IMG/VR virus record: IMGVR_UViG_3300044737_000122
Coordinates: 1-50,517 of that record
Direction: 5' to 3' (one strand)
Source of the DNA: a virus
Lineage: Duplodnaviria > Caudoviricetes
DNA length: 50,517 nt
A program made the position numbers and the translations under genes. How positions within the stretch are numbered: the first letter of the stretch is position 1; the number at the start of each line of letters is the position of its first letter. The notes beneath the pieces are model-generated. The model searched no databases. It had not been told where the DNA came from and was given only the letters and a program-made list of their open reading frames with translations. Shown here piece after piece: positions 530 through 48,755 of this stretch.

Positions 530-642
530 CGGGTTAGATAACCCGCGATCCCGCAGATGAGGAGGATCGGGACGGCTGTCGTCAGCAGCCGCCAAATCAT
601 CCGGTCATACTTGGCCAGCGGCTCGGGCGTCTGCCCGGTCAT
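526..642 (-). CDS. small membrane peptide (MTGQTPEPLAKYDRMIWRLLTTAVPILLICGIAGYLTR)
   Basis: 38-aa ORF with C-terminal TM; convergent stop overlap with the previous ORF. Confidence 0.35.
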   Translation of the reverse strand: MTGQTPEPLAKYDRMIWRLLTTAVPILLICGIAGYLTR

Positions 643-1087
643 GAATTCATGGAGTAGGTGAGACACGGCAGCCCTCCGTGGTGAGGAGGCCAATAGAATC
701 TGCTTCGCGATTCGCCGTCAAGAGTCCCGTCGCTATCTCGTCAGGATGATGCGAGGGCGATTTCTCTAATTATCTAACCGAAAAAGCGCTCTTGGTTTTG
801 AGCGCCGCGACGCGGCCGGCTTGCTCAGAGAATTCGCCGCGCTGCAGGCGCGGCGTAGCGGGCTTAAGAATTTCAGTACGCCACGATGCTTTCCAATTCT
901 CGCCGTATTACTATTCGATCCTTGAACCGTCGATATTCGCCGAGTGGGGACTCAAATCAAAGCGAATACTCGTCGTGGGGTGTTCCGCGTAAAAAATCAG
1001 TCAGCCATCAGGCCTTCGCAGGCAACGATGACTCATGCCCACAGCTTGGATGCCCAGATTTTGGGAAACAGGTCTCGGGAGAGGACG

Positions 1088-1189
1088 ATGAAGGATGCCA
1101 CCAAAAAGGCAGCCTCGGGTGCGCTCGCGCAAATTCTGGCGGTGATGGCCATGCTCGTCATCGCCGGCGTTGTGTTTTACGCGCGGTGA
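1088..1189 (+). CDS. small membrane peptide (MKDATKKAASGALAQILAVMAMLVIAGVVFYAR)
   Basis: GAGAGG SD before ATG; single TM segment. Confidence 0.45.
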   Translation: MKDATKKAASGALAQILAVMAMLVIAGVVFYAR

Positions 1190-2154
1190 GTGACGACCGT
1201 CAGACTGCGGGGTGGCTTAAGCCCGCGCAGGACGCGTTAGAGCCTCTTGGCGCGCGGCACCACAACGGGCTTCTCCTTCTGTTTTGCTCGTCGTGCGCCT
1301 TGCAAGGGTCGCTGTGATGTCTCTGCCGCGCGCGGCGCCCAGAACAGATCTTCGATATTTGAAGAGCGTGCCGATCCGCAAAGGCTTGCAGATCGATTCC
1401 ATCCAGCAGGTTTTGCGGTAAGACGACGCCCACCTTGAGGTCGCTCAACTTGACGGCGACGGCCTCAAGCTCGTCTTGCCAAGTGCGAAGCGCTTCGACA
1501 GGGAGTCGTCCCTGCGCGCCTCGTGCAATTCGCCGTCCCCGTTCTCCACCAGTTTGTAGAGGTTGGTCAGCTTCCGCTCGATCTGGCCTTTGTAGCCGAC
1601 GAGCACTTGCCGTTCCTGTGATTGGCGCGCCGAGAGAGTGTCGACGTTTCACCGACAATCAGCAAGGATCTCCGCGACGCGGCTCGCCGTAAGCACGTTC
1701 TCCACAACGGTTTCGAGCTCCATGCCAACCGTCAGTTCCGGACCGGCGAGCGGGTGACGCTGACGGCGCTCGCGACGGCCACCGGGGTGAACCGAGTCAC
1801 TAAGCTGATCAGCTGATCAGTAATCTACACAAAAAATAGTAGTATACATCTCTATCGTAGCATGTTACTACCTATGCTTGTATTAGCTATTTTGTCGGCT
1901 CTTCATTGGCGATGTCGGGTTTGCGATGCGCCGGCCTCAGGACTCGAGAGGAGAGAGCGATAGCAAAAGAGAATAGCACTCGTTCCACTCCGAAGCGGGG
2001 TGCCTTCCCGACCCCTAGAAGCGTAGTGGCCGACGCTACACCCTACGAGCCCGAAAAACCCGACCAATCCGGCTTTGCGGCCGACCAGCCGAGATCGGAA
2101 TCATACTCTCCGGAAGAAGCTGGCCGTTCAGGTACTGGGACAGGAGGAATAGCT

Positions 2155-2568
2155 ATGAGTGATGCAGGTTCGGCGGGCTATGTGGGAATCGCCGGTACGC
2201 CACCGCCGCCCTCGGGCACTGCCGCCGGCTCGCAGGCCGGCGCCGGCAAGGTGGAGACCGCCGGTACGCCACCGCCGCCCTCGGGCACTGCCGCCGGCTC
2301 CCATGCCGGCGCGAGCAAGGTGGGAACCGCCGGTACGCCACCGCCGCCCTCGGGCGCCACCGCCGCGGGCTCGCAGGCCGGCGCGGGCTATGTGGGAACC
2401 GCCGGTACGCCACCGCCGCCGTCGGGCGCCACCGCCGCCGGCTCGCGGGCCGGCGCGGGCAAGGTGGGAACCGCCGATACGCCACCGCCGCCCTCGGGCG
2501 CCACCGCCGCCGGCTCGCAGGCCGGCCCGGGCTATGTGGGAACCGCCGGTACGCCACCGCCCAAGTGA
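2155..2568 (+). CDS. Pro/Gly/Ala-rich protein with six 23-24 aa repeats (G[YK]VGTAGTPPPPSG.TAAGSQAG); an in-frame N-terminal extension to 1906/1960 is possible
   Basis: strong AGGAGG SD at 2142-2147 before ATG 2155; six TPPP cores. Confidence 0.7.
   Translation: MSDAGSAGYVGIAGTPPPPSGTAAGSQAGAGKVETAGTPPPPSGTAAGSHAGASKVGTAGTPPPPSGATAAGSQAGAGYVGTAGTPPPPSGATAAGSRAGAGKVGTADTPPPPSGATAAGSQAGPGYVGTAGTPPPK
2174..2562 (+). repeat. six imperfect 69-72 bp coding tandem repeats
   Basis: recurring GTGGGAACCGCCGGTACGCCACCGCCGCCCTCGGGC. Confidence 0.9.
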
Positions 2569-2677
2569 GATCTGTCGAAATAAATGATCGAGCGGCCTGA
2601 TCCCGGGAGCGGGAAGGGGGCCCCTCGAGATGTAGATGGCTCAGCTTTCGCCTGATTGTCAAAAGGAGTAAGACGCG

Positions 2678-4372
2678 ATGCCAGATACGATTGACGCTCC
2701 GAAACGCGGTGCCTTGCCCACCCCGCGGTCCGTATTGGCGGCGGCGAGACCTCATGTCGCCGATGCCCTATTGGGTGCACCGGCCGAATACATCGTCATC
2801 CCACCGCAGCCCTCGATGTGGGGCAACGACGTGCACAGCGACTGCGTGACGGCGGAGGAAGCCTTTGCGAAGGCCTGCTATCAGCCGGAGATTTTCATCA
2901 CCGACGTCGAGGTCATCAACTGGGCGACGCGCCACGGGGTCCTTGAAGGCGCCTATATCAACCAGGTGCTCGACTGGATGGTGCATGACGGCTTTCATCA
3001 GGACGGCCAGACCTACAACGATGGCGGCAAGCTATCGGTCAATTGGACCAATGCCAGCATCCTCAAGGATGCGATTTCGCGAGGGCCAGTGAAGCTCGGC
3101 ATCGCCGCCGATCAGGTTCAGACTGCTTACCGGCGACATAATGGCTGGTTCGGGACGGGATTTCACGCCGACGCCAATGAGGATCACAGCGTCGCGCTCT
3201 GCGGCTACGGCAGCATGTCCTGGCTGGCGCGGCAGCTCGGCGTCTCGGTACCGTCCGGGGTGAATGGCAACGCGCAGGGCTATGCCCTGTTCACCTGGGA
3301 CACGATCGGCATCATCGACGAGCCGTCGATGCGGGCGATCACGCACGAGGCGTGGCTCAGGGTGCCGACAACGGTCATCGTGGCCGCGCAGGGTGTCCGC
3401 ATCCATGTCTGCGCCCGTGGCGGCGACGGTGCCGTGTGGCACAGGTGGCAGACGGCTCCCAACAATGGCTGGAGCAATTGGTATTCGCTGGGCGGCTGGG
3501 TCGACTTGATCAAGGTCGCGACGAACCAGGACGGGCGCCTCGAGATCTTCGCGCGCGGCGGCGACGGCGCCGTCTGGCACAATTGGGAAGTGAGCCCCGG
3601 CGGCGGCTGGAGCGGCTGGTACTCGATGGGCGGCTGGATCGACCGGCTGGACGTGGTCAAGAACGCCGATGGCCGCCTCGAGATCTTCGCGCGCGGCGGT
3701 GATGGCGCCCTCTGGCATATGTGGCAGACCGCTCCCAACAACGGCTGGAGCGGCTGGTACTCGCTCGGCGGCTGGATCGATATGCTTGACGTGGCCCGAA
3801 ACGCCGACGGCCGGCTCGAGATCTTCGCGCGCGGCGGCGACGGCGCTGTCTGGCATATGTGGCAGACGGCTCCGAACAACGGCTGGAGCGGCTGGTACTC
3901 GCTCGGCGGCTGGATCGATATGCTTGACATGGCCCGCAACGCCGATGGCCGTCTCGAGATCTTCGCGCGCGGCGGCGACGGTGCGCTCTGGCACATGTGG
4001 CAGACCGCTCCCAACAATGGCTGGAGCGGCTGGTACTCGATGGGCGGCTGGATCGATATGCTGGACCTCGGCAGAAATGCGGATGGCCGCCTCGAGATCT
4101 TCGCGCGGGGCGGCGATGGTGCCGTCTGGCATATATGGCAGACCGCACCCAGCAACGGCTGGAGCGGCTGGTACTCACTCGGCGGCTGGATCGACCTGCT
4201 CAAGGTCTCTTCGAACGACGATGGCCGCATGGAGATCTTCGCGCGCGGCGGCGACGGCGCCGTCTGGAATATGTGGCAGACGGCTCCCAGCAATGGCTGG
4301 AGCGGGTGGAACTCGCTCGGCGGCTGGATCGATATTCTGGAGGTATGGCCCGAGGCCCCCGGGAATCCGTAA
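2678..4372 (+). CDS. papain-like (C1-type) cysteine peptidase domain fused to a 7-bladed PLL/fucose-lectin-like beta-propeller
   Basis: WGNDVHSDCVTA (Cys) and HSVALCGYG (His) motifs; seven 46-aa repeats RLEIFARGGDGAVWH.WQTAPNNGWSGWYSLGGWID; AAGGAG SD. Confidence 0.8.
   Translation: MPDTIDAPKRGALPTPRSVLAAARPHVADALLGAPAEYIVIPPQPSMWGNDVHSDCVTAEEAFAKACYQPEIFITDVEVINWATRHGVLEGAYINQVLDWMVHDGFHQDGQTYNDGGKLSVNWTNASILKDAISRGPVKLGIAADQVQTAYRRHNGWFGTGFHADANEDHSVALCGYGSMSWLARQLGVSVPSGVNGNAQGYALFTWDTIGIIDEPSMRAITHEAWLRVPTTVIVAAQGVRIHVCARGGDGAVWHRWQTAPNNGWSNWYSLGGWVDLIKVATNQDGRLEIFARGGDGAVWHNWEVSPGGGWSGWYSMGGWIDRLDVVKNADGRLEIFARGGDGALWHMWQTAPNNGWSGWYSLGGWIDMLDVARNADGRLEIFARGGDGAVWHMWQTAPNNGWSGWYSLGGWIDMLDMARNADGRLEIFARGGDGALWHMWQTAPNNGWSGWYSMGGWIDMLDLGRNADGRLEIFARGGDGAVWHIWQTAPSNGWSGWYSLGGWIDLLKVSSNDDGRMEIFARGGDGAVWNMWQTAPSNGWSGWNSLGGWIDILEVWPEAPGNP
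3400..4345 (+). repeat. seven ~138-bp coding repeats (propeller blades)
   Basis: CGAGATCTTCGCGCGCGGCGG recurs at 138-bp spacing (3541, 3679, ...). Confidence 0.9.
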
Positions 4373-4516
4373 GCCGAAGGCGGGCAGAGAACATTGGCCG
4401 CGCGGCTATCAATTACAGGCGCGCTGCACTCACATAGCATCTAATTGCGTTGTTGGCATCGTTTGGTCGCAGGACGACAAGCGCTCGGCTTGAGACGTTA
4501 GCTCCGCATCGCGACA

Positions 4517-4603
4517 CGGATCGACGTGGTCGAACTGATCGAGCTTGGCAAGGCCATCGGATTTGACGCCGCCGACATGGTACGCAAGTTGTCCCGGCGC
4601 TGA
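4517..4603 (+). pseudogene. C-terminal remnant of an XRE-family HTH regulator (RIDVVELIELGKAIGFDAADMVRKL)
   Basis: matches the RRIDVVE...AIGFD C-terminus of XRE proteins; no start or N-terminus. Confidence 0.5.
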
Positions 4604-4619
4604 TTGCGCGGATGATAGC

Positions 4620-4694
4620 TGGTGCCGGTTGAGAGGATTGAACTCCCGACCTTCGGTTTACAAAACCGCTGCTCTACCGCTGAGCTAAACCGGC
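4620..4694 (-). tRNA. trnT: tRNA-Thr(TGT), CCA-encoded; probable att site
   Basis: GCCGGTTTAGCTCAGCGGTAGAGCAGCGGTTTTGTAAACCGAAGGTCGGGAGTTCAATCCTCTCAACCGGCACCA; perfect acceptor stem, anticodon UGU, TTCAA T-loop. Confidence 0.97.
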
Positions 4695-5138: not shown

Positions 5139-5507
5139 TTATCCACTCTGGTCGGCAATGGCCGTCACGACGCCTACAATCGTGTTGCGTAGCCGCTTGT
5201 TCGTTATCTTCTGAAACGACTGCACGAGGCGCAGGGCATCGCGCTCGGCAATCAGCATGAGCGGGGAGAGCTTCCCGGTGTGCGGCTTGGTGTCGGTGTA
5301 GAACGCGGTAATGGGTACTTTGAGCGTGTGGGCGATCTTGAGGAGACGGCCCGCGCCCACGCGGTTCGCGCCCTTCTCGTACTTCTGAATCTGCTGGAAC
5401 GTGACGCCGAGCTTCTCGCCTAGCTGCGTCTGCGACATGTTGGCGGCGATGCGATGCAAGCGGATACTCGCGCCAACTATTAAGTCGTCAGGGTCGATGC
5501 GCTTCAT
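5139..5507 (-). CDS. XRE-family HTH transcriptional regulator
   Basis: MSQTQLGEKLGVTFQQIQKYEKGANRV motif; GGAGG SD before ATG 5507. Confidence 0.9.
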   Translation of the reverse strand: MKRIDPDDLIVGASIRLHRIAANMSQTQLGEKLGVTFQQIQKYEKGANRVGAGRLLKIAHTLKVPITAFYTDTKPHTGKLSPLMLIAERDALRLVQSFQKITNKRLRNTIVGVVTAIADQSG

Positions 5508-5720
5508 GTCTGCAACCTCCGTGGAGTCCCGGAGGTACAACATAATTCTTGAGTTGTGTTGCGCCTATAAAGCCTTGTATTTGCTAAGGATTTGATAAAC
5601 TACCTGTGTGAGTTCCCGCGCCACCCTACAACCCGTTTTATGGCGTAACGACGCGGTATTCCCGCAATTCGCGCATCGAGAACGCATCCCCCTTGCAAAT
5701 ATCAAGAATTTTGTCTGCGT

Positions 5721-6368
5721 ATGAACGTCTACGGATACGCCCGCGTGAGCACCACCGGGCAAGAACTCGATGGCCAGCTAGTGCAGCTGCAAGAGGCCGG
5801 ATGCGTCCGTATCTTCCAAGAGAAGGTTAGCGGGGCCAAAAGCGATAGGGCCGAATTAAGAAGGCTCCTGCGCGTTCTGCGTGAGGGGGACTTGGTGGTG
5901 GTGACGCGGCTCGACCGTCTGGCGCGCTCCACGCTGGATCTTCTGCGCTTCCTGGCGGCGGTCAATGACAAGCGTGCTGCATTCCGCTCAATCAACGAAG
6001 CCTGGGCCGATACCACTACCGCCTTCGGCCGCTTCCTTGTCGTCGTCCTAGGCGGGGTAGCGGAGTTTGAACGCGAGCTAATCCTGGCGCGTACCGCTGA
6101 AGGCAGGCGGCTTGCGGTGGCTCGTGGGGTGCGCCTAGGGCGTAAGCCCAAGCTCGATGCAGAGCAGCGCCGGGACGCCTGCACACGCAAGCTCGCTGGC
6201 GAGGATGTCGCGTCTATTGCGCGGTCATACAACGTCTGCGGCGCTACGATTTCGAGGATTCAATGTTGTAACTCTCTCAGCGAGTCCGCGCGGCTCGTTG
6301 TACCTGCGGCTCCTTTGGAAGATGAAACACAAGCGCGACGCGGCGTGACCCGCAGCGCGGGCATTTGA
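5721..6368 (+). CDS. serine resolvase/invertase (Pin/Hin family) with C-terminal HTH
   Basis: YGYARVST, VVVTRLDRLARS, AEFERELILART, GVRLGRKPKL. Confidence 0.93.
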   Translation: MNVYGYARVSTTGQELDGQLVQLQEAGCVRIFQEKVSGAKSDRAELRRLLRVLREGDLVVVTRLDRLARSTLDLLRFLAAVNDKRAAFRSINEAWADTTTAFGRFLVVVLGGVAEFERELILARTAEGRRLAVARGVRLGRKPKLDAEQRRDACTRKLAGEDVASIARSYNVCGATISRIQCCNSLSESARLVVPAAPLEDETQARRGVTRSAGI

Positions 6369-6549
6369 GACGAGAGGCCAGATCGCTAAGAGGGAACGGT
6401 GCTCCTGGCGTCCAGACCAGCGTTCTCAAGTCTAGGTCGTATTGGTAGACGCATGCGCGGATCGAGCGCATGCCGTCGTTGTTTCCGAACGCGCACCGCG
6501 CCGTGATCCGCCAGCCGAGCTGCCAAGCCTCGCCGATCGTCTCCACCAT
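6277..6549 (-). CDS. Zn-ribbon hypothetical protein, probably SOS-regulated
   Basis: RLKCPRCGSR motif; LexA box 10 bp upstream. Confidence 0.7.
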   Translation of the reverse strand: MVETIGEAWQLGWRITARCAFGNNDGMRSIRACVYQYDLDLRTLVWTPGAPFPLSDLASRLKCPRCGSRRVALVFHLPKEPQVQRAARTR

Positions 6550-6558
6550 GGCAAACGA

Positions 6559-6573
6559 GAACATTTAGAGAAC
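6559..6573. promoter_or_regulatory. alphaproteobacterial LexA (SOS) box
   Basis: GAAC-ATTTAGA-GAAC, matching GAAC-N7-GAAC/GTTC-N7-GTTC. Confidence 0.75.
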
Positions 6574-6677
6574 ATTCGGTCAAGGGTAAAGCACGTGAGA
6601 ATATCAAAAGACCTTTGACATGCGGTTATGATGCGAGTATCGCTATTTACTCCACTTAAGCCGCGAAGGAGGCGAAC

Positions 6678-7082
6678 ATGCGCATTACGGTACGCGGCTG
6701 GGGCCGCGATCTCGGCGAGACCGTCATTCTTTCTGAGGATTTGGAGAGCGCCGATGAGGCTCCCGGAACATACAGCAAGGGCAAGCTGTACAAGAAGGTG
6801 TTGGAACCCGAAAACAAGCGCAGAACCAAGGTGCGGATTTCGTCCGGGATCGAAGTCCGGCTCGGCGGCAGTTACTTGATGCATGTGGAGCTCTCGAGAC
6901 GGGAGATTTCGCGCCTCTTCTTCGAGACGCACAATGGCGCGATGGTTCGCATGATTAATTCGTTCATCGACGAAGAGGATCGCGAGGACGAACTACGCAG
7001 GCTGCAAGAGCGTATCGAGCGGCGCAAGCGCTTCGCCGAGGCGATCGCCGCCGCGAACGCGGAGGCGGGCGATCCGTCCTAG
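6678..7082 (+). CDS. hypothetical protein
   Basis: AAGGAGG SD; 134-aa ORF. Confidence 0.75.
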   Translation: MRITVRGWGRDLGETVILSEDLESADEAPGTYSKGKLYKKVLEPENKRRTKVRISSGIEVRLGGSYLMHVELSRREISRLFFETHNGAMVRMINSFIDEEDREDELRRLQERIERRKRFAEAIAAANAEAGDPS

Positions 7083-7187
7083 GTGCGCAAGGACCTGCCG
7101 TATGAAAGCGGCCGCTCGAAGCGGTGGATCAAGATCAAGAATCCCGATAGCCCGGCGATGAAGCGCGTTGAGGACGGCACATTCTAG
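7083..7187 (+). pseudogene. C-terminal remnant of an ATP-dependent DNA ligase
   Basis: RKDLPYESGRSKRWIKIKNPDSPAMKR, the ligase motif V C-terminus; the rest is missing. Confidence 0.7.
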
Positions 7188-7199
7188 GACTGTGACGCA

Positions 7200-7391
7200 A
7201 TGTATTACTGGATAGCAATTCTCGAAGAATCCAAAGAAAAACCAGATCACATTAGTCGAATGACGTTGGATGAGGTGCTAGCTCTCGGCCGGCAGGCAAT
7301 CGCCGACGGGCACCAAGTGTTGGAAGTGAGTGGGCCGAACGGTCGGGTTTGGACCGGGCAGGAGCTCACGGACCTGCTTGCGCGAAGCTAA
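7200..7391 (+). CDS. hypothetical protein
   Basis: 63-aa ORF. Confidence 0.5.
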   Translation: MYYWIAILEESKEKPDHISRMTLDEVLALGRQAIADGHQVLEVSGPNGRVWTGQELTDLLARS

Positions 7392-7543
7392 TCGTTCTTG
7401 CACGGGCAGGTGCGCGTCCATCCGAAGACGTTGTAGCTATAGCCTCTTCCCTGGCAGCCAGAGCAATCCTTCTCAGGATCGCCGTTGAACGCACCATTGA
7501 GGTGCGTTCTCTGCTCGGGGCCGTTATTCGAGTCGATGCGCAT
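7388..7543 (-). CDS. 51-aa Zn-ribbon peptide (CSGCQGRG...CPC) adjacent to the origin-like region
   Basis: read manually: MRIDSNNGPEQRTHLNGAFNGDPEKDCSGCQGRGYSYNVFGWTRTCPCKND. Confidence 0.5.
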   Translation of the reverse strand: MRIDSNNGPEQRTHLNGAFNGDPEKDCSGCQGRGYSYNVFGWTRTCPCKND

Positions 7544-7790
7544 ATCTTCTATCTATAAAACTATTACTATTATTAGGACCTGTGGATATGGGGAAAACTG
7601 AATTCCGCGTGAACCTGTAACGTCGCCTTGTTCGACCACGTGGTGGGGATAGCACTCGAACAAGAAGTGAGTAGCGAGATTGTGCGACGCTTCCTGGCGG
7701 CTACTCCCAATTTGTCCCCGCGCTATCCCCAACTACTATCCCCACCTGCCTCTCTCTACAGAGCCTCCGCTATCCCCATGTTATCCCCAC
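7542..7790 (-). other. oriC-like replication origin (DnaA boxes, DnaA-trios, AT-rich unwinding tract)
   Basis: minus strand TTTTCCCC[A]TATCCACA-GGTCC-TAATAATAGTAATAG-TTTTATAGATAG; further YTATCCCCA boxes at 7643, 7723, 7736, 7770, 7781. Confidence 0.65.
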
Positions 7791-7865
7791 CTCGAAGGCA
7801 GGTATCTTTCTTGTAGTGTCGCGATATGTTCAGCGGGAACCTACTCAAGGGATGGAGGGCTGAAA

Positions 7866-8276
7866 ATGGTTGATACCGGCATCGGCGAAAAGGAGCGCGT
7901 GCAAATCCTTCTCGCCGAATACACCAGTTTGCGTTCCGAGATCAACGCGAGGATGACCAGCGTTTACACCGTTGCGTCGTTCACTGCTGGAATCGTGATC
8001 TGGCTACTGCAGCAGCAAGCAGGGAGCCTCTATCTCGGGCTCGCTGCGGCAGGTATCGGACTAACGCTTTGTGCATGGGCGCTCATGAGGGATTTGGTCC
8101 GAACGGCGCTGCGGGTCCGAGAAATAGAAGCAGAAGTGAATCGGCGGGCGGGCGAGCGCCTTTTGGTTTGGGAAACCGAATGGGGTGGACAAACCAGCTC
8201 CCTTTGGGGTGGTCGGCTTCTGAGAAAGGCGCTTCACTTGAATCGTCCGCCCTACACAGGTGAAGTCTCGAAGTGA
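7866..8276 (+). CDS. two-TM membrane protein (moron)
   Basis: GGAGG SD; LLAEYTSLRSEI motif followed by two hydrophobic helices. Confidence 0.65.
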   Translation: MVDTGIGEKERVQILLAEYTSLRSEINARMTSVYTVASFTAGIVIWLLQQQAGSLYLGLAAAGIGLTLCAWALMRDLVRTALRVREIEAEVNRRAGERLLVWETEWGGQTSSLWGGRLLRKALHLNRPPYTGEVSK

Positions 8277-8389
8277 GACAGTCACAAGCGATCCCCACCT
8301 TACCACCTCACGGGCAGGGTGCTGGGTCTCAAGCGTCTACAAGATAATGCCTGCTGCCCAGCGACCCGCCCACGAGATTGTGCGACGTA

Positions 8390-8620
8390 TCAGGCGTGGT
8401 CGCGCGTGTTCTCCGGCTTCCAACCCATGACCTTGAATTTCAAGAAATCCCCAACCTGCGCCGCAACCTCGCAGTTCTCCTTGTCCTTTCCGTAAGTCGT
8501 CACTTGCTCGACGCCTCCGCGACCAACACGGCGGGCAATAATGATAACCTGGTCGTACCCATATTTGTGAGCCACTAGCTCGGCCGCTTCTACTGGAATT
8601 GGTTTTGTCTCCATATGCAT
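8390..8620 (-). CDS. phage hypothetical protein
   Basis: last ORF of the leftward early operon. Confidence 0.65.
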   Translation of the reverse strand: MHMETKPIPVEAAELVAHKYGYDQVIIIARRVGRGGVEQVTTYGKDKENCEVAAQVGDFLKFKVMGWKPENTRDHA

Positions 8621-8630
8621 TGTGTGAGGC

Positions 8631-8795
8631 TTAGCTAGTAGGCTTCTTGGGTCTTATCGGCTCCATGGTGTCGGGGTCTACGCCCAGCAGGACGAGGCCG
8701 ATACGGTGCGTGACCACTTCGCGGTGCTCCTCGGAGCAAAAGCCGCCGATATAGGTCTGAATGGTGTCCTGCTTTTCACATCCGATGATGCACAT
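8631..8795 (-). CDS. 54-aa Cys-containing hypothetical protein (MCIIGCEKQDTIQTYIGGFCSEEH...)
   Basis: fills the gap in the operon; read manually. Confidence 0.45.
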   Translation of the reverse strand: MCIIGCEKQDTIQTYIGGFCSEEHREVVTHRIGLVLLGVDPDTMEPIRPKKPTS

Positions 8796-8835
8796 AAGTG
8801 TTCGTCAATGGGTCGCGCAACCGATTGTGCGGCCG

Positions 8836-10431
8836 TTAGATGAATAAGAAGTCGGCGGCCTTCCATGACCCGTCCTCATGGACGATCAGTCCCTTTGATC
8901 GAGCCATACTCTTGGCTTTGATGTAGCCGGAGCTGAGTGGTGAGTACTGGCTTTTCTCTGCGAGCGTGATGTCATCGAGACTGGCTGTCTCCAGGAGCGG
9001 GCCTAGCACTCGCTGCTCGGGGCCGGAAAGAACACTCAGAATGAACCGATGTAGCTGCTCTTGCGTGAGCACCTCAGGTGCAGTGTTAGCCCTTGATCGA
9101 CCAGAAGGGGTAAGCTCCAGGCCATCCACGTAACCGGCGGTGCGACACATACTTAGCGCCTTGATGAACCCGGATGATTTGACACTGTATTTTGCACATG
9201 CAGCGACGAGGGGAAGCTCTCTAGGTACATTCGCGTACTCAAGCATCGCGATGGCGTCGATGATGCGCATTTCTGGGCCGGTGATGTTATCAGAGGCGAC
9301 GGGGTTTACCTCAGGCGCAGCGCGCGGCTGCGGAGAAGGCCTCGCCGGCGCGGCGACCTTTTGTGCAATTCGCACTGGTTGCTGGCGAAGTGCTGAAATG
9401 GCGCTGGTGATGGGCGCCAAGGCCTGCTCAAGTCGGGCTAGCTGCCCTTCTTTGAGGACCGGCACTTCAACAGTCTTGATCTTCTCTTGCGGGATTTTCT
9501 GGATCGGGCGGTTTCTGAGTTGTGTCGTAAGGTCTTTTACTTGCTGCTTCAATTCAGCAACGGTCCTAGCCTCTTGCTCGGCTTCTGCGGGAAGGTCCGC
9601 CAGTTCCCCAAGAACGCGCTTGATGGCGCTTGTTGGTGGTACGGTCCGCGTGAGCGCGCGGGAGCCGGCTTTGGGATGCGTGGTGGCGACTGGTCCGATC
9701 GTCACGCGGGTGACTTCGTCAGAGATAGCCGGCCCGAACGCATAGAATTCCCCAGGCTTGAGGGCGCGCAAGGAAAGCATCTGCTCGCGGGACATAAAGC
9801 CAAGCTCATCGCCTGCGCGCTTCATGTCGATGTCCTGTGTGGCTCGGCCGATCAGTTTGTTGTTGCACTCTGCGGCAGCATCCTTGTTGAGCTTCGAGAT
9901 ACGTTGAGTGGCAAGCACAGCACAGTAGCCCCGCTTCCTGCCGAGCGCAGCTAAACCGATCACCGCATCCATCGCCTCGCTCTGTCCTTTCTCGGGCGCG
10001 TAGGTGTGGGCCTCGTCGATCACGACGATGCAGGGGTGCCAAAGCTCCTTAGGTGCGTTAATTAAGGCGTCGAGGAACAGCCGCACGAAACGCTTACGCT
10101 CCTGCGGGTGCAGCTCGTATAGGTCGATGATCGCCGACACCTTAAGCTCCAGCAATTTCCGGGCGAGTAGGGCGGCGCTGCGTGGCTCCGCGGGCGTGTC
10201 GCCGTCTTTGCCGGCGAGTATGAAGTCGTGCTTCTCCCGTAGCGTCGAGAACTCGCCCTCAGAGTCGATAACGATCTGCTGCACCTTGCCGTGAGTCTGC
10301 TCGAGGAGCCGGCGGAGCGCCCAAGATTTGCCGCCGCCGGAGTTGGCCTGGACGAGCAAGCGGCTCTCGATGAGCTTTGACAAGTCGATACTGGTGTTGT
10401 CGTTCAGCTTTATTTTTGTGTCGTCCGCCAT
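8836..10431 (-). CDS. HerA/DUF87-like P-loop ATPase with coiled coil and C-terminal wHTH-like region
   Basis: ANSGGGKS Walker A, IVVIDEAH Walker B, LATQR motif. Confidence 0.85.
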   Translation of the reverse strand: MADDTKIKLNDNTSIDLSKLIESRLLVQANSGGGKSWALRRLLEQTHGKVQQIVIDSEGEFSTLREKHDFILAGKDGDTPAEPRSAALLARKLLELKVSAIIDLYELHPQERKRFVRLFLDALINAPKELWHPCIVVIDEAHTYAPEKGQSEAMDAVIGLAALGRKRGYCAVLATQRISKLNKDAAAECNNKLIGRATQDIDMKRAGDELGFMSREQMLSLRALKPGEFYAFGPAISDEVTRVTIGPVATTHPKAGSRALTRTVPPTSAIKRVLGELADLPAEAEQEARTVAELKQQVKDLTTQLRNRPIQKIPQEKIKTVEVPVLKEGQLARLEQALAPITSAISALRQQPVRIAQKVAAPARPSPQPRAAPEVNPVASDNITGPEMRIIDAIAMLEYANVPRELPLVAACAKYSVKSSGFIKALSMCRTAGYVDGLELTPSGRSRANTAPEVLTQEQLHRFILSVLSGPEQRVLGPLLETASLDDITLAEKSQYSPLSSGYIKAKSMARSKGLIVHEDGSWKAADFLFI

Positions 10432-10434
10432 ACG

Positions 10435-10911
10435 CTAGAAGGGAATGTCGTCGGGATTGATGTCCTCTTCCGGGTAGGGGATAGGCGCTGCGCTCGCTGT
10501 GGGCTCGCCAGAACCGCGTTCGGACGGGGGGCGCTGGTCTGTATCATCCTCGGGCGCAACGTCCTTTGTAGGCCCGTTTACGGTGCCTGGGCGTGGGCCA
10601 AACTGGACGCGATCGGCGATGATCTCCGTGCGGTATTGCTTGCCCTTCTCCGTGGTTTCCCACGAGCGCGTCTGAATACGCCCTTCGATGTGGGCGATGC
10701 TGCCTTTCTTCAAATATTGGGCGCAGCTCTCGGCCTGCTTACCGTAGACGACGATGTTGTGATACTCGGGCACATCCACCTTCTTGTCGTCTTTTTTAAC
10801 GGTGCGGTTGGTAGCGATGCCGAAGGTTGCCACTGAGCCGCCGCTGGTAAGAGCCTTGAGCTCAGGATCGCGAGTAAGGTTGCCGAGCAAGAGAACTTTG
10901 TTGAGATTCAT
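10435..10911 (-). CDS. ssb: single-stranded DNA-binding protein
   Basis: MNLNKVLLLGNLTRDPEL...EGRIQTRSW...DDIPF acidic tail. Confidence 0.97.
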   Translation of the reverse strand: MNLNKVLLLGNLTRDPELKALTSGGSVATFGIATNRTVKKDDKKVDVPEYHNIVVYGKQAESCAQYLKKGSIAHIEGRIQTRSWETTEKGKQYRTEIIADRVQFGPRPGTVNGPTKDVAPEDDTDQRPPSERGSGEPTASAAPIPYPEEDINPDDIPF

Positions 10912-10914: not shown

Positions 10915-11319
10915 TTATTGATTAGCTAGTAGCTCCGGGTTCTCGTAGATGTTGCCGATGACTTCCATGCGCCACTTCTCTCCTTGGTCGTTTACCATCC
11001 AACCGTAGTCCCACTTATTTGACTTGTCGTTTGGGTTTGTAAACCACCAAGTACCATCCTCGTACTCGACCAACCAAACCTGCTCGTCGCGTGGCTCCTT
11101 GCATATATCCCCCTCATATATCTCCTTGCCGTTCTTGTCCTTGAGGCCGGACCACTCGCCCCAGTGGGTGAGTTGAGAGTAAAGACGCGGGTCTGATACC
11201 GTCCCAAACAATCCAATATGGTCCGCTCTCTCGGCTCCTTCTTCGCTGGGGTGCAGCGTAAACAGCCACCACTGCTGACGCTCTACATCCCACGCTCTGA
11301 TTTTGATTTGTCGCATCAT
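10915..11319 (-). CDS. YopX-family protein
   Basis: IKIRAWD...GLKDKNGKEIYEGDI...EVIGNIYENPELL. Confidence 0.9.
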   Translation of the reverse strand: MMRQIKIRAWDVERQQWWLFTLHPSEEGAERADHIGLFGTVSDPRLYSQLTHWGEWSGLKDKNGKEIYEGDICKEPRDEQVWLVEYEDGTWWFTNPNDKSNKWDYGWMVNDQGEKWRMEVIGNIYENPELLANQ

Positions 11320-11672
11320 GCCGTCTTGCGCTTAGCTAATAATTCCGGGTTTTCGAACACATTCCCGATGATCTCGTAGAGCGTCTTCTTCGGGAGTTGC
11401 GGATGCCAGCGGTAGTCCTGCCACTGCACTACAGCGCGCGCGTTTCCGTTGATGGCGACGATGTGGCCCTCGAAGACCTCGCGGCGCTTCTTGTCCCGAA
11501 ATCCGGTGAACTGGACTAGCGCTTGCGGCACACGCTGCACGCCTTCGCCGTCGAGGATGCGGAATACCTCGCCCTTATCGGTAAAGCTGATCGCGCGGAC
11601 CTCGCGCATCTTGTCGTCGGCCCAAGCGCGGAATTTTATCGGGCGGTCACTATTCTTCATAACCGGGTGCAC
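11316..11672 (-). CDS. YopX-family protein
   Basis: IKFRAW...QFTGFRDK..EVFEG.I...EIIGNVFENPELL. Confidence 0.88.
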   Translation of the reverse strand: MHPVMKNSDRPIKFRAWADDKMREVRAISFTDKGEVFRILDGEGVQRVPQALVQFTGFRDKKRREVFEGHIVAINGNARAVVQWQDYRWHPQLPKKTLYEIIGNVFENPELLAKRKTA

Positions 11673-12666
11673 CTTGAGCGGCTAAAGCGGCTTCCTCCTC
11701 GGCTGTGAGCTCGCCGGTTGACGGATCGGCGGGTTTAGGGTCGGCAGCGGGAGCCGGCGCGGCTGCCTTGGGCGGCATCGCCTTCACCTGCTCCTCTAGG
11801 CGAGCGAGGATCGCGTCAGCATTCTCCACCTTGGCACCGTCCAGCTGAGTGCGGCCGATGATGCTCTTGCGAATGGCCTCTTGCGTCGTCACGTCGGCCC
11901 CGAGCAGCTTGAGGCAGTGGAGTATCTTCGCCTTCTTGCGATTGATCTCTTCGGGCGGCGCCTCCTTGCCTGAGTTGAGCCACGCGAGTATGCGCTCGCC
12001 CACCTTTTCGTCCGGCGTAAATATCTCGTCCTTGAAGAGGTTGGTGCGGTCCTTGCTGGCGCGCGCGTTGTGCGCCTGGTCGATGTCGAAGAAGATCGTA
12101 AACTCGTACTCCATGCCTTCCCGTTGGACCGGAGCCATGCCGAGCTTGACGGGGCGGGACTTTCTGTTGCCCCTGCTGTCGGTGTACTCCTCGAGCTCAT
12201 ACTGCTGCTTGCTGCGCGTGGTGGCGATGATGTGCGCAGGGGAGTTGAGCATCGCTCCCACAAGCATGCGGTGCTGTGGCGTAAGGTCGGCCCAGACCGT
12301 GTAGGAGTTCTTCGCCGACTTGCCGAGCTTGTCGGCCTGATCGAGGATGCCGCCTTCGTCGCTCCATGCGTGGCTCAAGCTGTCGATGATGATGGTATCG
12401 TAGCCGGCCTCCTCGGCGGCATGGATCGCCTCGACATACCGCTCGGGCTTGTACGGCGGCTGAAGCGATATGATGTCGTACTCAAAAAGGTCCGCATAGA
12501 GATCGCCCGAGCCCCGCTCGGTGTCGATCATTACTATGCGGCCGGTGGGGGTTATGCCCTTGGCGAGCTTCAGCGAGCTCATTGTCTTGCCAGCGCCCGA
12601 TGGGCCGGCGAGTCCGAGACGCAGCTTAGCTTTCGTGCGCTCGGCCTTCCGAATTTCTACAGTCAT
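11650..12666 (-). CDS. Sak4-like AAA_24 ATPase (phage ssDNA-annealing recombinase)
   Basis: GPSGAGKT, IDTERGS, IIDSLSHAW, QREGMEYEF; linked to ssb. Confidence 0.88.
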   Translation of the reverse strand: MTVEIRKAERTKAKLRLGLAGPSGAGKTMSSLKLAKGITPTGRIVMIDTERGSGDLYADLFEYDIISLQPPYKPERYVEAIHAAEEAGYDTIIIDSLSHAWSDEGGILDQADKLGKSAKNSYTVWADLTPQHRMLVGAMLNSPAHIIATTRSKQQYELEEYTDSRGNRKSRPVKLGMAPVQREGMEYEFTIFFDIDQAHNARASKDRTNLFKDEIFTPDEKVGERILAWLNSGKEAPPEEINRKKAKILHCLKLLGADVTTQEAIRKSIIGRTQLDGAKVENADAILARLEEQVKAMPPKAAAPAPAADPKPADPSTGELTAEEEAALAAQGAPGYEE

Positions 12667-12966: not shown

Positions 12967-13845
12967 TTGATGATGTCCCGAAAAGCTCCGAGCGACGAAG
13001 AGCAAAAGACCAAGGCGAAGTTGCTTAAAGAATACCGGAAGCTCCTCGATGCTTCTGGTGCGAACGAGATGTCGATCAAACCTTTTCTCGATGCCAATCC
13101 TAGCTTCATACCGACTCCATGGCTTTTAAATCACCATCTTCACTTCGGCGTGATCCTTCCGCAGTTCCAAATTTCTGCGGGCATCACAACCGACTATGTG
13201 TACCTGACGAAGAGTTCAACCACTTGGTGGTGCGTTTTCGTGGAGTTCGAAAGCCCTACTGGACGCTTTTTTACAAACAGCAACACTGTGACTACTCATA
13301 GCGATCTGACTCGGGGGCTGAACCAAATCGACACCTGGCGCGATTATTTGAAAAAGCACAAGGAGGCGTTCCTTAGTCAGCTAGACCCCCTGCGCGTACC
13401 TATGAACAACAATCCGGTCGACTTCCGTTATGTGCTGGTTATGGGTCGGCGCGCGGAGTTCGAGAATTCGCCGAAGAAGGTCGCTCGCTATTCCGACTAT
13501 GAGACCGGCGTAAAGCATGCCGATGTTAGAGTGATGACTTATGACGCTGTGGCGTCGGATTTCGAGTCTCTTCCGCTAGAGAAGCGACATACGATGAAGC
13601 GGGTAGGAAACATGCTTGCCTTCGAACGGTACGATCCTGAGCAGAACGGCGAGAATCTATGGGACTATCTTACTAAGGATCAATTGAAATTATCGCCTTC
13701 GCAGATCGACGCTGCGCGAGCTAGTGGCGTTCTCATCGATGATTGGCTGGAAGGAAAGAAGCTTACGAATTGGGGCCGAGACGTAGCGGGGAGTAGAAGG
13801 AGTATCCGCTCGATCCTCAAGTCGGTAAAGAAACCTCATCCCTAG
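12967..13845 (+). CDS. sduA: Shedu (DUF4263) anti-phage nuclease
   Basis: VEFESP, GLNQIDTW, YVLVMGRR, VMTYD motifs of the PD-(D/E)XK DUF4263 core. Confidence 0.8.
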   Translation: MMMSRKAPSDEEQKTKAKLLKEYRKLLDASGANEMSIKPFLDANPSFIPTPWLLNHHLHFGVILPQFQISAGITTDYVYLTKSSTTWWCVFVEFESPTGRFFTNSNTVTTHSDLTRGLNQIDTWRDYLKKHKEAFLSQLDPLRVPMNNNPVDFRYVLVMGRRAEFENSPKKVARYSDYETGVKHADVRVMTYDAVASDFESLPLEKRHTMKRVGNMLAFERYDPEQNGENLWDYLTKDQLKLSPSQIDAARASGVLIDDWLEGKKLTNWGRDVAGSRRSIRSILKSVKKPHP

Positions 13846-31775: not shown

Positions 31776-31861
31776 GCCTCCATCATACAGCATGTTCACC
31801 GCCGTATTGTCCGAGACCACAAACGGCAATATGGGGATAACAACGTTCGAGGGCTATTGGG

Positions 31862-45669: not shown

Positions 45670-47715
45670 TCACCGATTTTTTTCAGTTAAGGGTAGATCG
45701 TCGTTCTCAACCGTGCGGGAAGCAGGCTTGTAGGGATGGACAAACGCGAGCCGCTCGCGCATCACAGCGTAGTCATCTCGTTCCATTTGCGGCTCGTGGT
45801 CGAATTCAAGTTTTTTCACCGGCAGGTCGAACTCTTTTTTTCGGGTCGTTATATGCACAGACCCTACATCGTGGCAGCGCGACTTGATGCCAGCTTGCTC
45901 GAGTGCCGCGACCACGCCGGGGATAAAACCGCCCGATTGCTTGAGATGGTGGTGCGCTATGGTCATGCCGATCTTGGATGAGCGGGCCTTCTCCAAGATG
46001 TCGGCAAATATCTCGTCGCGTGCGATGTAGTCCTGGGCCTCGTCTATCACTACAAACACAGGCGGGCCGGGATGGTCCGTGCGTTCGCTGGCGAGTTGGT
46101 CTATGAGCGCAATGACGAGACGGCCTAGGAGCGCGCCGGCTTCTTTGCCAAACGCGCGTCGGCTCGTGTCCACGAGAAGCACCTTTCCGCCGCGCTGTAT
46201 CTCGCGCATGTCCAGCGCGAAGCTGTCGGCATTGAGCATTTTCAGGAACGGCCCGTCGCGGAACTCCGCCAAAAAATCCATCAATCTCTGCTCGATGCCG
46301 CCGCTGGTAAGCGCCGCCACGCCCCTGCGGGTGTGCAAAAACCACTTGCGGGTTACGTCGTCCAGGCGGTCAGGATTGAGACCCGCCGGAAGCTTGTCTT
46401 TGGGCGTTAGCATCAACTCCGAGAGACTGTAGAGCGTAGGGTTAGTCATGCTGTAGGCGGCGTTCACGTAATGGCGCAGAACGCCCATTTGCAATTTGCT
46501 CGCCTCAGTCAGTCCGGCAAGCATGTACACAAGCAGCGGCACGCCTTGCGCTTTGGGCAGCTTGAACGGGTTGAGCGGAAAAATTGCATCGGCATCAATG
46601 AGGATGAGGTGGCCGTCTAGAGGTTGACCTGCGGCAAAATCCTTGAGCGTGCGCATCTCGCGGACCAGACGTTTGCTGTCTACCACGAAAAGCGAGCATT
46701 CCTCCCGAGCTACGCGGGCGAGGTCATCCTTGATGAAGTGCCTCAAAAATGTAGTTTTGCCCGAGCCGTTATCGCCCATGCACCAATGATGGGTAAAGCG
46801 CATCTCGTCGGTAAAAGGCTGGAAGGGGATGGCGATGTTAAACAGCTCTCGGAACGCTGGGATCAGATAGAGCTCCAAAACGTCCTCGCCTTTATACTGC
46901 ACGGGCCAAACTCCCGTCACGGCGTATCCGGCGCCGTATTTTTCGCGGACCGTCTTGCATAAGCCGCGTGCTTTCAGTTCTGGCGTGCAGAACGGCGCGA
47001 GCACATCAACGATAGTTTGGCCAACAGGGATAAGCTGCGAGGCCGGTACCTTCCATGGCGTCGGCTGCTCACTAGGCCGCGGTAGATGGCGGAGAAACGC
47101 GAGGATGCTCTGCGTAAGCGCCTTGGTAATGAGGTCGTAGTCGAAGAGCTGTGAAGCCAACGCAAGGGGCCGTAGGTACTCAATATCCATATCAATATTG
47201 AAACCGAGCGGGATGGGCTTGTCGGGCTCGTAGGGTTGGAGCGGTTCAGCCGGCCTGAAGTCCGGTTCCGTATCTAAGTAAAAGAACAGCGCACGAAAAC
47301 GATGGAGGGTCTCCGGGTCAAAGACGAAGCCTTCCCGTAGAATCGCGAGCTCAATATCAGGTCGCCAGTCGGCAAAGACTTCCTCCGGCATTGGCAAAGG
47401 GCGGGCCGCTATATCGTACAGACGCTTGTATTCGTCATATGTCTCTCGCGTCTGTCGGTAGATGTCGGCGATGTATGCAGCGCGCTCGTCTGCCGTTTCT
47501 TTGGCCTTCGTGTGATGAATGTAGAATGCGTATGCTATTAAACCGGCGCCTACCAATATGCCTGATACAAGCACGATCCGCATGAGGGAGCCGAAAAACA
47601 CCTCAATAGAAGCGATGTTTTTGTCGACTGCCATTGAGGCGATAGGGATCAGGATGCAGATCACCACCGCCCAGCCGAGCAGCTTCTCGCTCGCTGGTAA
47701 ATTCCCGTCGGCCAC
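45670..47715 (-). CDS. VirD4/TraD-like coupling ATPase with two N-terminal TM helices
   Basis: RFTHHWCMGDNGSGKT, VVIDEAQDY, EKARSSKIGMTIAHH. Confidence 0.78.
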   Translation of the reverse strand: MADGNLPASEKLLGWAVVICILIPIASMAVDKNIASIEVFFGSLMRIVLVSGILVGAGLIAYAFYIHHTKAKETADERAAYIADIYRQTRETYDEYKRLYDIAARPLPMPEEVFADWRPDIELAILREGFVFDPETLHRFRALFFYLDTEPDFRPAEPLQPYEPDKPIPLGFNIDMDIEYLRPLALASQLFDYDLITKALTQSILAFLRHLPRPSEQPTPWKVPASQLIPVGQTIVDVLAPFCTPELKARGLCKTVREKYGAGYAVTGVWPVQYKGEDVLELYLIPAFRELFNIAIPFQPFTDEMRFTHHWCMGDNGSGKTTFLRHFIKDDLARVAREECSLFVVDSKRLVREMRTLKDFAAGQPLDGHLILIDADAIFPLNPFKLPKAQGVPLLVYMLAGLTEASKLQMGVLRHYVNAAYSMTNPTLYSLSELMLTPKDKLPAGLNPDRLDDVTRKWFLHTRRGVAALTSGGIEQRLMDFLAEFRDGPFLKMLNADSFALDMREIQRGGKVLLVDTSRRAFGKEAGALLGRLVIALIDQLASERTDHPGPPVFVVIDEAQDYIARDEIFADILEKARSSKIGMTIAHHHLKQSGGFIPGVVAALEQAGIKSRCHDVGSVHITTRKKEFDLPVKKLEFDHEPQMERDDYAVMRERLAFVHPYKPASRTVENDDLPLTEKNR

Positions 47716-47738
47716 GCTCCCCTCCCGTTTCGCGCACT

Positions 47739-48509
47739 CTAGCTGGCCATCCTGTCCTGGACAAATTCCGTGTGGCCGATCACGCCGGGAACCAGGCCGG
47801 CGTACTGCGCTAGGACCAGCGCATCCTCATGGGAGCATCCCGCGCCCTCCTTGTGCTCAATCTGCAAGACGGCCTGCCTAAGCCGGGGCGGGAGCTCGGC
47901 CAAAAAGTTAACGGCGACGGCGAGGCGGCTCTGGCGGATGAAGAGCGTGTGTAAAGGACACAGATAAAAGCCACCGTCAGAGACAACGATTTGTCCTTTA
48001 TGCTGCTGCATCAAAAACAGAGCCAGCGCGAGCGCCTGCTTGTCTCCCAACTGGGCACGGTCAATCCGCGCTACCACCGTGCCGTCGAAATCGAATTGCC
48101 TACCACTACAGAAGATGTCCTTGAGCGTCGGAAAAAAGAGCAGGGCGTCCACTGCCGCCAACGCTTCGGCTTGAGCGGGGTCTTTGGGGTTGCCTGTGAG
48201 CTTGTCCAAGCGTGTAGTGGTAACGAGCATGCGGGCGAGGGCGCGTTTGCCGTTACGCACGGTAAGGGTGCTCTCTCCGCCCGGATCGGCAGCGTAGATG
48301 ATGTCAGCGACGGCCACGGCGCGCTCGGGCGTGATCCCGATAAGGGGATTGAAGTGGTGCTTGTGCGGGTCGAACACGCGAACCCGCTTCGTAAGAAAAA
48401 TGTCCGGCGTGTCGCCGATGTAGAGAAAAGGTGGAGCCGCGTGGTCGCGGAGCCAGTCGGTAGTGTCGGCGATGCCGAGGTGTAATGAGTTCATGCGGTC
48501 AGCGGCCAT
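47739..48509 (-). CDS. degenerate coupling-protein-like hypothetical protein
   Basis: FDPHKHHFNPL, TLTVRNGKRAL; no Walker A. Confidence 0.6.
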   Translation of the reverse strand: MAADRMNSLHLGIADTTDWLRDHAAPPFLYIGDTPDIFLTKRVRVFDPHKHHFNPLIGITPERAVAVADIIYAADPGGESTLTVRNGKRALARMLVTTTRLDKLTGNPKDPAQAEALAAVDALLFFPTLKDIFCSGRQFDFDGTVVARIDRAQLGDKQALALALFLMQQHKGQIVVSDGGFYLCPLHTLFIRQSRLAVAVNFLAELPPRLRQAVLQIEHKEGAGCSHEDALVLAQYAGLVPGVIGHTEFVQDRMAS

Positions 48510-48720: not shown

Positions 48721-48755
48721 CGCACAAGCCGCCGCGTGATGCGGCGGCTTGTGCG
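48721..48755. repeat. perfect 15-bp inverted repeat
   Basis: CGCACAAGCCGCCGC-GTGAT-GCGGCGGCTTGTGCG. Confidence 0.85.

Follow-up and report, generated by a model that had tools for sequence, protein, structure and literature searches.

We analyzed a virus record of the Duplodnaviria (Caudoviricetes; IMG/VR record IMGVR_UViG_3300044737_000122), the whole of which, 50,517 bp, is referred to here as the window, and concentrated on an element at 7542-7790 that lies in a non-coding stretch of a prophage and resembles the unwinding region of a bacterial chromosomal origin of replication. The element combines DnaA-box-like 9-mers, a short GC spacer, triplets of the DnaA-trio type, and an AT-rich tract, and it ends at a small open reading frame (ORF). 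Its parts, read from the sequence, from exact motif matches, and, for the AT-rich tract, from duplex stability, are as follows.

7388-7543, minus strand: Cys-rich small ORF of 51 amino acids, starting directly after the AT-rich tract
7542-7572, both strands: AT-rich tract (84% AT), the candidate unwinding element
7556-7576, plus strand: seven DnaA-trio-like triplets, 3'-GAT TAT TAT CAT TAT CAA AAT-5'
7577-7580, minus strand: GC spacer GGTC, 4 nucleotides (nt), from the proximal box to the first trio
7581-7597, minus strand: tandem DnaA-box-like 9-mers with one base in common
7644-7652, minus strand: CTATCCCCA box, an exact YTATCCCCA match, oriented as the tandem pair and 47 nt upstream of it
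7675-7689, with an exact copy at 8373-8387 and a weaker copy at 8814-8831: 15-nt repeat, CGAGATTGTGCGACG on the plus strand (CGTCGCACAATCTCG on the minus strand)
7723-7731, 7736-7744, 7770-7778, and 7781-7789, plus strand: four exact YTATCCCCA boxes in the opposite orientation

Read along the minus strand from 7597 to 7541, the element consists of TTTTCCCCA (7597-7589) and ATATCCACA (7589-7581), which have the A at 7589 in common, followed by GGTC, the triplets (5'-CTA ATA ATA GTA ATA GTT TTA-3' on this strand), TAGATAGAAGAT, and the ATG at 7543-7541. The AT-rich tract overlaps the trios and stops 1 nt short of the ATG at 7543. All seven trios have the middle A, and the consensus GAT adjoins the boxes, while the full [G/A]A[T/A] fit is seen in only two of the seven, the other five starting with T or C instead of G or A. 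The upstream cluster holds five exact YTATCCCCA copies in 146 bp, each with one or two mismatches to the box consensus, and the four on the plus strand form two pairs with spacings of 13 and 11 nt. Compared with the E. coli consensus, the boxes are weak: only ATATCCACA and TTATCCCCA have at most one mismatch, and the CTATCCCCA copies have two. The repeats of the region are 9 to 12 nt long and occur in both orientations. Each copy of the 15-nt repeat lies in a gap between minus-strand ORFs, and the one within the box region has been kept in Nitrobacter vulgaris (see below). A second short motif, GGCAGG..TATCTT..GTAG, is present at 7797-7825 (plus strand) and at about 8325-8350 (minus strand), with a counterpart after the ATPase stop in the N. 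vulgaris locus (L001), and a degenerate box, CGATCCCCA (extended form, CGATCCCCACCT), is found at 8289-8297, between a membrane-protein gene and the next minus-strand ORF and near the second copy of the 15-nt repeat.

In the definitions given by PMC8287927 and PMC7561715, DnaA-trios read 3'-[G/A]A[T/A]-5' on the strand complementary to that of the boxes, and the search procedure set out in PMC8287927 for basal unwinding systems asks for a box with no more than two mismatches, a second box, a spacer of no more than 16 bp, and at least three NAN trios with GAT proximal. All of these sequence features are present at 7542-7790: ATATCCACA and TTTTCCCCA depart from the consensus TTATCCACA by one and two mismatches, respectively, the spacer (usually GC-rich in such systems) is the 4-nt GGTC, seven trios with a central A stand in a row with GAT first, an AT-rich element lies beside them, and further boxes are clustered upstream. 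The element thus has the adjacent boxes, the short GC-rich spacer, at least three central-A trios with GAT proximal, the AT tract, and the upstream boxes of a Bacillus subtilis-type basal unwinding system. It differs from such a system in lying on a prophage and not beside dnaA/dnaN, in having mostly boxes with C at position 7, and in that five of its seven trios start with T or C. The boxes of B. subtilis presumably share one base as well and have a spacer of 4 nt, a likeness to which we give no weight here. The original prediction, made from the sequence alone, had described this order of tandem overlapping boxes, GC spacer, triplets, and AT tract, which was confirmed by the sequence and by the strict scan described below; the five further YTATCCCCA boxes that it listed are all exact, the first of them beginning at 7644, one base off from the 7643 given. 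Its reading of the trios as TAA TAA TAG TAA TAG had to be replaced, because it follows the strand of the boxes, with a frame shifted by one base, and trios are defined on the other strand.

We then asked how often such an arrangement would be expected by chance. Exact YTATCCCCA occurs seven times in the window, against 0.39 expected (standard deviation, 0.57; maximum, 2; none of 100 shuffles reached 7), and five of the seven copies fall within 146 bp (7644-7789). With one mismatch to the 8-mer allowed there was no window-wide excess (29 versus 22.8 expected), so the box signal is a local cluster. A strict scan for the architecture (two overlapping boxes with no more than two mismatches in 15 specified positions, a spacer of 1 to 7 nt, and at least six NTN triplets) returned a single site in the window and none in 60 first-order Markov simulations (~3 Mb). 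The segments 7542-7572, 7543-7588, and 7543-7603 turned out to be the least stable 30-, 45-, and 60-nt duplexes, respectively, of the 50.5-kb window, the first having -29.1 kcal/mol versus a mean of -45.9 (standard deviation, 3.6) for 30-nt duplexes, about 4.7 standard deviations off the mean. The succession of boxes, spacer, trios, and AT tract truly exists and is not random. Among 60-nt duplexes, the next least stable is 1815-1875, which lies in the left flank between small ORFs, with TTCTCCACA 120 nt upstream, and shows no trio pattern. Cumulative GC skew has no switch at 7.5 kb; it follows gene orientation and is uninformative here. The box region shows no CtrA sites (TTAA-N7-TTAA), no GANTC enrichment, no Rfam family match, and no conserved reading frame, its alignment with the N. 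vulgaris locus (L001) having indels of 1, 4, and 12 nt.

One close relative of the phage was found, a 36-kb contig (C34) of N. vulgaris DSM 10236, with which most of the phage is common at 67 to 86% nucleotide identity. This contig keeps the entire 250-nt non-coding stretch at 78% identity, including the tandem pair, the spacer, the trios, and the AT tract (L003:8258), so the motif conservation that the original prediction had proposed to look for in related prophages is present in this one. One upstream box of the N. vulgaris stretch reads CTATCCACA, and a diverged counterpart of the 51-amino-acid ORF, which had no family match in the family scans, occupies the same place. Since the genes flanking the stretch on both sides are not common to the window and N. 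vulgaris, the non-coding stretch has been kept as a unit through mosaic exchange. The box-plus-trio pattern matched only the related prophage in the 4.3-Mb N. vulgaris assembly, in which a reversed control pattern matched three times. Directly after the box region, the N. vulgaris relative carries a gene for a CAP12/Pycsar-type TIR protein (L001:8530-9711).

Used as a DNA query, the 261-nt region gave nothing significant in the other 300 of 301 genomes of the GTDB family that contains N. vulgaris, the related prophage being the only match; three further matches of 23 to 26 nt in the family genomes (E, ~0.001 to 0.008) were taken as chance. Neither the region nor its conserved cores matched plasmids, pattern searches of IMG/VR gave nothing beyond the N. 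vulgaris contig, and the GenBank phages, searched with the region as part of an 8-kb query, had no match to it. A chromosomal oriC in the strict sense is the single origin of a bacterial chromosome and is usually linked to dnaA/dnaN or to another conserved origin neighbourhood. The site is not one, since it lies among phage genes in a prophage and, apart from the related prophage, has no DNA counterpart in the family genomes (300 of 301). Two candidates met in the N. vulgaris assembly were rejected: an AT-rich spot (L088:11452) considered as the chromosomal origin is a LysR/pirin divergent promoter, and a second Bac_DnaA match (G001:C95, L086) considered as an hdaA/DnaA paralogue is the IstB ATPase of an IS21-family element.

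Upstream of the element in the direction of its boxes lies, 1.2 kb from it, a minus-strand gene (8836-10431) for a HerA-like ATPase, whose family is very large (3,580 matches among 8,000 candidates scored). From genomes, viral contigs, and metagenomes, 80 ATPase loci each were fetched and scanned, the sets partly overlapping. Four loci from three lineages have the same architecture on the strand of the homologous ATPase gene, at a distance of 77-1239 nt downstream of it, namely, the window, N. vulgaris (L003:8258), a Thermoanaerobaculia metagenome-assembled genome (MAG) (L036:7424), and a Terriglobia MAG (L043:6636). The latter two are phage-like contigs from Acidobacteriota. The Thermoanaerobaculia locus has, 77 nt after the ATPase gene, two adjacent boxes, GCCCC, the triplets CTA CTA CTT CTA GTT CTA, an AT tract, and three inverted boxes. 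In the Terriglobia locus, 162 nt after the gene, a perfect TTATCCACA overlaps a second box and is followed by GGAC and five CTA-type triplets, and a second unit on the other strand faces the first across ~29 nt of AT-rich DNA (6636-6753), a symmetric arrangement that could load DnaA filaments on both strands. Other neighbours of the ATPase gene differ (YqaJ in the former locus; HNH, DUF5131, and a resolvase in the latter). The MAGs of both hosts have, just downstream of dnaA, a box, a short spacer, CTA-type triplets, and AT-rich DNA on one strand (L179:4792, with a perfect box, and L178:3636), with the same strand logic as in the window. Because these hosts have separate dnaA-linked sites, the elements beside the ATPase genes are not their chromosomal origins, and the occurrence of near-consensus boxes beside the same gene in another phylum argues for DnaA, which is universally conserved, rather than a phage-specific protein, as the binder.

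A relaxed scan of the genome, viral, and metagenome sets gave 11, 7, and 3 forward matches, respectively, versus 3, 4, and 3 weak ones with the reversed control, the 11 including the window, which was scanned together with the genome set. For coding periodicity, a low-GC background, or a lack of trios and an AT tract, we rejected the scanner matches L060:11041, L016, L055, L007, L158, L052, L186, L095, L104, L107, L112, L164, L204, L211, L221, and L252.

The remaining genes of the window were assigned by family scan (for the ATPase, by family scan and structure model).

5139-5543, minus strand: helix-turn-helix (HTH) regulator
5721-6368, plus strand: small serine recombinase (resolvase type)
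7866-8276, plus strand: membrane-protein ORF
8836-10431, minus strand: 531-amino-acid HerA-like ATPase
10435-10911, minus strand: SSB
10915-11672, minus strand: two YopX proteins
11650-12666, minus strand: AAA_24/Sak4-like ATPase
12967-13845, plus strand: Shedu-type SduA_C gene
15.4-37.3 kb, minus strand: tail and head genes, Mu-type portal, terminase
37343-39802, plus strand: 819-amino-acid DUF4238 protein
40503-40853, minus strand: TM2-domain gene
42301-42948: CcrM-like adenine methyltransferase, adjoining ArdC
49396-50517: tyrosine integrase with an arm-binding domain

The left edge of the window is chromosomal DNA of a host from the N. vulgaris family, because positions 1-537 and a tRNA-Thr gene (4620-4694) match chromosomes of that family: 208 of the 301 genomes searched were matched, most of them with 95 to 100% identity in the tRNA, and the first window gene is ~69% identical to its chromosomal counterparts and adjoins tRNA-Thr in several genomes. 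In several related genomes the host gene and tRNA-Thr are only 140 to 200 bp apart, so the ~4 kb between them in the window (540-4620), which include a gene for an FG-GAP repeat protein, may be a separate insertion. Small ORFs lie between the serine recombinase gene and the box-trio site. A small serine recombinase gene is found 1.2 to 2.3 kb beyond the box-trio element both in the window and in the Terriglobia locus (L043, 9054-9719), and we speculate that the enzyme might resolve replicon dimers. The Shedu-type SduA_C and DUF4238 genes, on the opposite strand inside the prophage, are likely defence genes. After the TM2 gene come genes for a nuclease, ArdC, the CcrM-like methyltransferase, a DnaG-type CHC2 zinc-finger protein, Replic_Relax, and a 681-residue P-loop protein. 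The right end of the window (43570-50517), with the integrase, a 382-residue protein, the 681-residue protein (FtsK/EccC-like), Replic_Relax, and the DnaG-type zinc finger, resembles an integrative-element module and is either part of the phage or a second element; the N. vulgaris contig stops before its counterpart, and the window itself stops at the integrase. The stretch is present in two soil-metagenome DNA runs (Logan contigs), and no RNA run is listed as containing it.

Given this setting, we considered whether the box region could be a cis-acting site of another kind, such as the arm-type attP sites of the integrase or a packaging site, or a functionless remnant, and found each of these highly improbable. 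The integrase does have an arm-binding domain, and the arm sites to which such domains bind are short and repeated in either orientation. An attP, however, is split between the prophage ends, whereas the site lies ~2.8 kb inside the left junction at tRNA-Thr, and the N. vulgaris contig continues for 3.6 kb beyond it. The terminase genes are 28 kb away, and a remnant would hardly have been retained through the mosaic exchange of both flanks.

Among 53 ORFs, each scanned against at least one of Pfam, PHROGs, and NCBIfam, there was no match to a DnaA, DnaB, DnaC, lambda O/P, Rep, or polymerase family. The original prediction that no initiator is recognisable in the element therefore stands for canonical families; it has to be qualified by the HerA-like ATPase, SSB, Sak4-like, DnaG-type, and Replic_Relax proteins that the phage does encode. 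Two of these are found near the integrase: the DnaG-type CHC2 zinc-finger protein has 211 amino acids, and the Replic_Relax protein (Pfam E, 1.4e-7; PHROG "replication initiation by nicking" E, 2e-9) is encoded 37 kb from the site. The lack of an initiator holds for canonical proteins only, and an initiator may be encoded elsewhere. An iteron origin of the lambda, P1, or Rep_3 type has its initiator gene beside or around it, and no such gene was found among the 53 ORFs; phased direct repeats of 17 to 22 nt were not found in the box region, nor iteron-like repeats in 42.3-49.5 kb.

The protein that comes closest to a phage-encoded partner is the HerA-like ATPase. Its structure model (mean predicted local distance difference test score [pLDDT], 81.5) has a HerA/FtsK-like hexameric translocase fold in the N-terminal 250 residues, with HerA chains as the top PDB matches (E, ~1e-10 to 1e-11) and weak agreement from NCBIfam, followed by a low-confidence (disordered or coiled) linker and two compact C-terminal winged-helix-like domains with a terminal hairpin. 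These two domains appear as a repeated motif in the alignment, and some relatives have HTH families in this part (PF13730, PF14947, and PF13545). Over its N-terminal 458 residues the ATPase shares 87% identity with its N. vulgaris counterpart, the remainder having no tblastx match; the ATPases of the Terriglobia and Thermoanaerobaculia loci are 38 to 57% identical to that of the window, and in the GenBank phages only two distant tblastn matches were found, both in unannotated metagenomic records. The ATPase is not a known initiator; among the phage proteins it is the leading candidate for a partner acting there. The element could then be an origin or a cis site bound by a phage protein, most plausibly the ATPase, with the 9-mers being iterons that only resemble DnaA boxes. 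Such an explanation would account for the position of the element after the ATPase gene in all four loci and for the winged-helix-like domains; we regard it as quite unlikely, since the ATPase varies most in its C-terminal half, which diverges from N. vulgaris while the boxes are kept, an argument against the ATPase as their reader. Moreover, the Terriglobia and Thermoanaerobaculia boxes are perfect or near-perfect DnaA consensus sequences despite the low identity of the ATPases, the 9-mers occur in both orientations rather than as 17- to 22-nt phased direct repeats, and most ATPase loci are without such repeats.

Taken together, the observations are best accommodated if 7542-7790 is a vegetative, DnaA-dependent, chromosome-type unwinding origin of a temperate phage, to which we assign a probability of about 0.5. 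Host DnaA would bind the seven boxes of 7542-7790, and an ATP-bound DnaA filament would extend from the tandem pair (7597-7581) onto the plus-strand triplets (7576-7556). The AT tract at 7542-7572 would then melt, and a host or phage helicase would be loaded there. The HerA-like ATPase, SSB, and Sak4-like ATPase might act after opening, as a helicase or translocase and in recombination-dependent replication that would form concatemers for packaging. The original prediction that the phage replicates as a mini-chromosome using host DnaA is an inference and, if taken to mean host DnaA alone, an overstatement; the phage may replicate in this way.

Several observations weigh against an origin. The stretch is no better conserved in N. 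vulgaris, at 78%, than are the neighbouring genes at 75 to 86%, so two sequences reveal no measurable extra constraint on it. There are 18 exact YTATCCCCA copies in the N. vulgaris assembly with no cluster outside the prophage contig, and no box cluster was seen near hemE or dnaA of N. vulgaris, so the box type of the host origin is not given by this genome. The element is rare in the ATPase family, being present at 3 of 80 loci from genomes, at 1 of 80 from viral contigs (once more the N. vulgaris contig), and at none of 80 from metagenomes. Across 159 loci there is no clear DnaA-box excess after the ATPase gene (0.21 to 0.24 per kb versus roughly 0.08 to 0.25 elsewhere), and the closest other relatives of the ATPase (45 to 56% identity; L004, L095-L100, L005, L006, and others) have no element within 1.8 kb downstream. 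The link between element and ATPase is therefore one of position, observed at four loci, and does not hold generally. C occupies position 7 in five of the seven boxes, and the TCCCCA sites of Caulobacter, the weak W-boxes with which the original prediction correctly equated this core, are very weak DnaA binders according to the review PMC4285127. An origin fired by DnaA only would be under the once-per-cycle control of the host, which suits lytic growth poorly, and the evidence for an origin consists of sequence.

Other points against an origin come from transcription. Two exact boxes outside the cluster lie in non-coding DNA beside conserved promoter-like sites.

40926-40934, minus strand: TTATCCCCA box, 10 nt upstream of TTGACG-N17-TATACT, which precedes the TM2 gene; kept in N. 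vulgaris C34 near 3305
31832-31840, minus strand: TTATCCCCA box, ~60 nt before the start codon (ATG) of the gene for the head maturation protease; kept in N. vulgaris C34 near 9043

Extra box-like 9-mers accompany the N. vulgaris homologues, two of them preceding the site near 9043. By this position, the two boxes behave as transcription-factor sites, and for them such a role appears at least as well shown as a role in an origin. At the element itself, the 51-amino-acid ORF needs its own promoter, because the opposite-strand gene 7866-8276 separates it from the upstream operon; with the AT tract abutting its ATG, the tract could therefore be a -10 region plus leader.

The main alternative is accordingly that the region is regulatory, with DnaA, or a phage regulator of similar site preference, controlling divergent promoters at 7543 (minus strand) and 7866 (plus strand) and the two late promoters. 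Phage expression would thereby be tied to the replication state of the host. In Caulobacter DnaA acts on promoters as a regulator, and in lambda it stimulates pR; the two outlying boxes are kept upstream of promoter-like sequences at corresponding positions in N. vulgaris, the AT tract borders on the start of a conserved ORF, and the boxes lie 77 to 143 nt upstream of the ATG at 7866. We consider this explanation somewhat unlikely. A box close to recognisable -35 and -10 elements, as expected of a DnaA-regulated promoter, is seen at 40926; no sigma-70 consensus promoter was found in 6300-9000, though alphaproteobacterial promoters can depart from that consensus. A regulatory site needs neither boxes overlapping by one base nor a 4-nt GC spacer nor seven in-phase NAN triplets, an arrangement that recurs in the Thermoanaerobaculia and Terriglobia loci, and the face-to-face units of the latter, across an AT-rich center, look like an opening site and not like an operator. 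Chromosomal origins also overlap promoters, and regulatory and origin roles may coexist at the element, as they can at chromosomal dnaA-dnaN regions.

If it is an origin, the element differs in part from each known system with which it can be compared. It has in common with Cori of Caulobacter crescentus, an origin with G-boxes and weak W-boxes, the TCCCCA core of five boxes, which is the W-box, and a host from the class that includes Caulobacter; unlike Cori, it lacks CtrA sites and GANTC enrichment, its core is extended to a full 9-mer, and it has the tandem pair and trios. In origins of the P1 oriR, pSC101, F, and RK2 type, DnaA boxes help the replicon's own Rep, which binds 17- to 22-nt iterons. 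The window resembles them in being a mobile replicon with DnaA boxes beside an AT-rich region and differs from them in that neither a Rep gene nor iterons of that kind were found in it. In lambda, the origin is part of the O gene and is opened by the O protein, and the start of its replication is tied to host DnaA and to nearby transcription. The likeness there is a temperate phage with a DnaA-tied start; unlike lambda, the window has no O/P-like genes that we could find. The oriC minichromosomes are cloned chromosomal origins that replicate as plasmids (mentioned in PMC6669920). They, like the proposed phage, have a DnaA-opened origin and no initiator of their own; unlike these laboratory constructs, the phage would be a natural virus, with a site that is not a copy of the host origin.

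The DnaA-box and DnaA-trio module has been described so far as a chromosomal device. A superficial look at the literature found no report of a phage-borne box-trio origin, which is not proof of absence, and the 9-mers, searched as text, matched nothing there but unrelated primers. It is an unlikely generalization that a group of uncultured, initiator-less temperate phages in at least two phyla fires a DnaA-trio origin with host DnaA, with the ATPase as a new helicase or loader working at the DnaA-opened site, late transcription reading the DnaA state of the host through the extra boxes at late promoters, and the double unit of the Terriglobia locus as a natural symmetric origin.

The cultured strain N. 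vulgaris DSM 10236 carries the related prophage, so the question of the origin is testable. Should the element act as proposed, it would offer a small, portable, natural test bed for DnaA opening and the loading of two helicases, on which the Terriglobia double unit would bear directly. It would also represent a route for virus replication that needs no encoded initiator, which would matter for the annotation of phages devoid of visible replication genes, and it would raise the questions of how lysogens avoid ectopic firing at an integrated second DnaA origin and whether phages sense the host cell cycle via DnaA.

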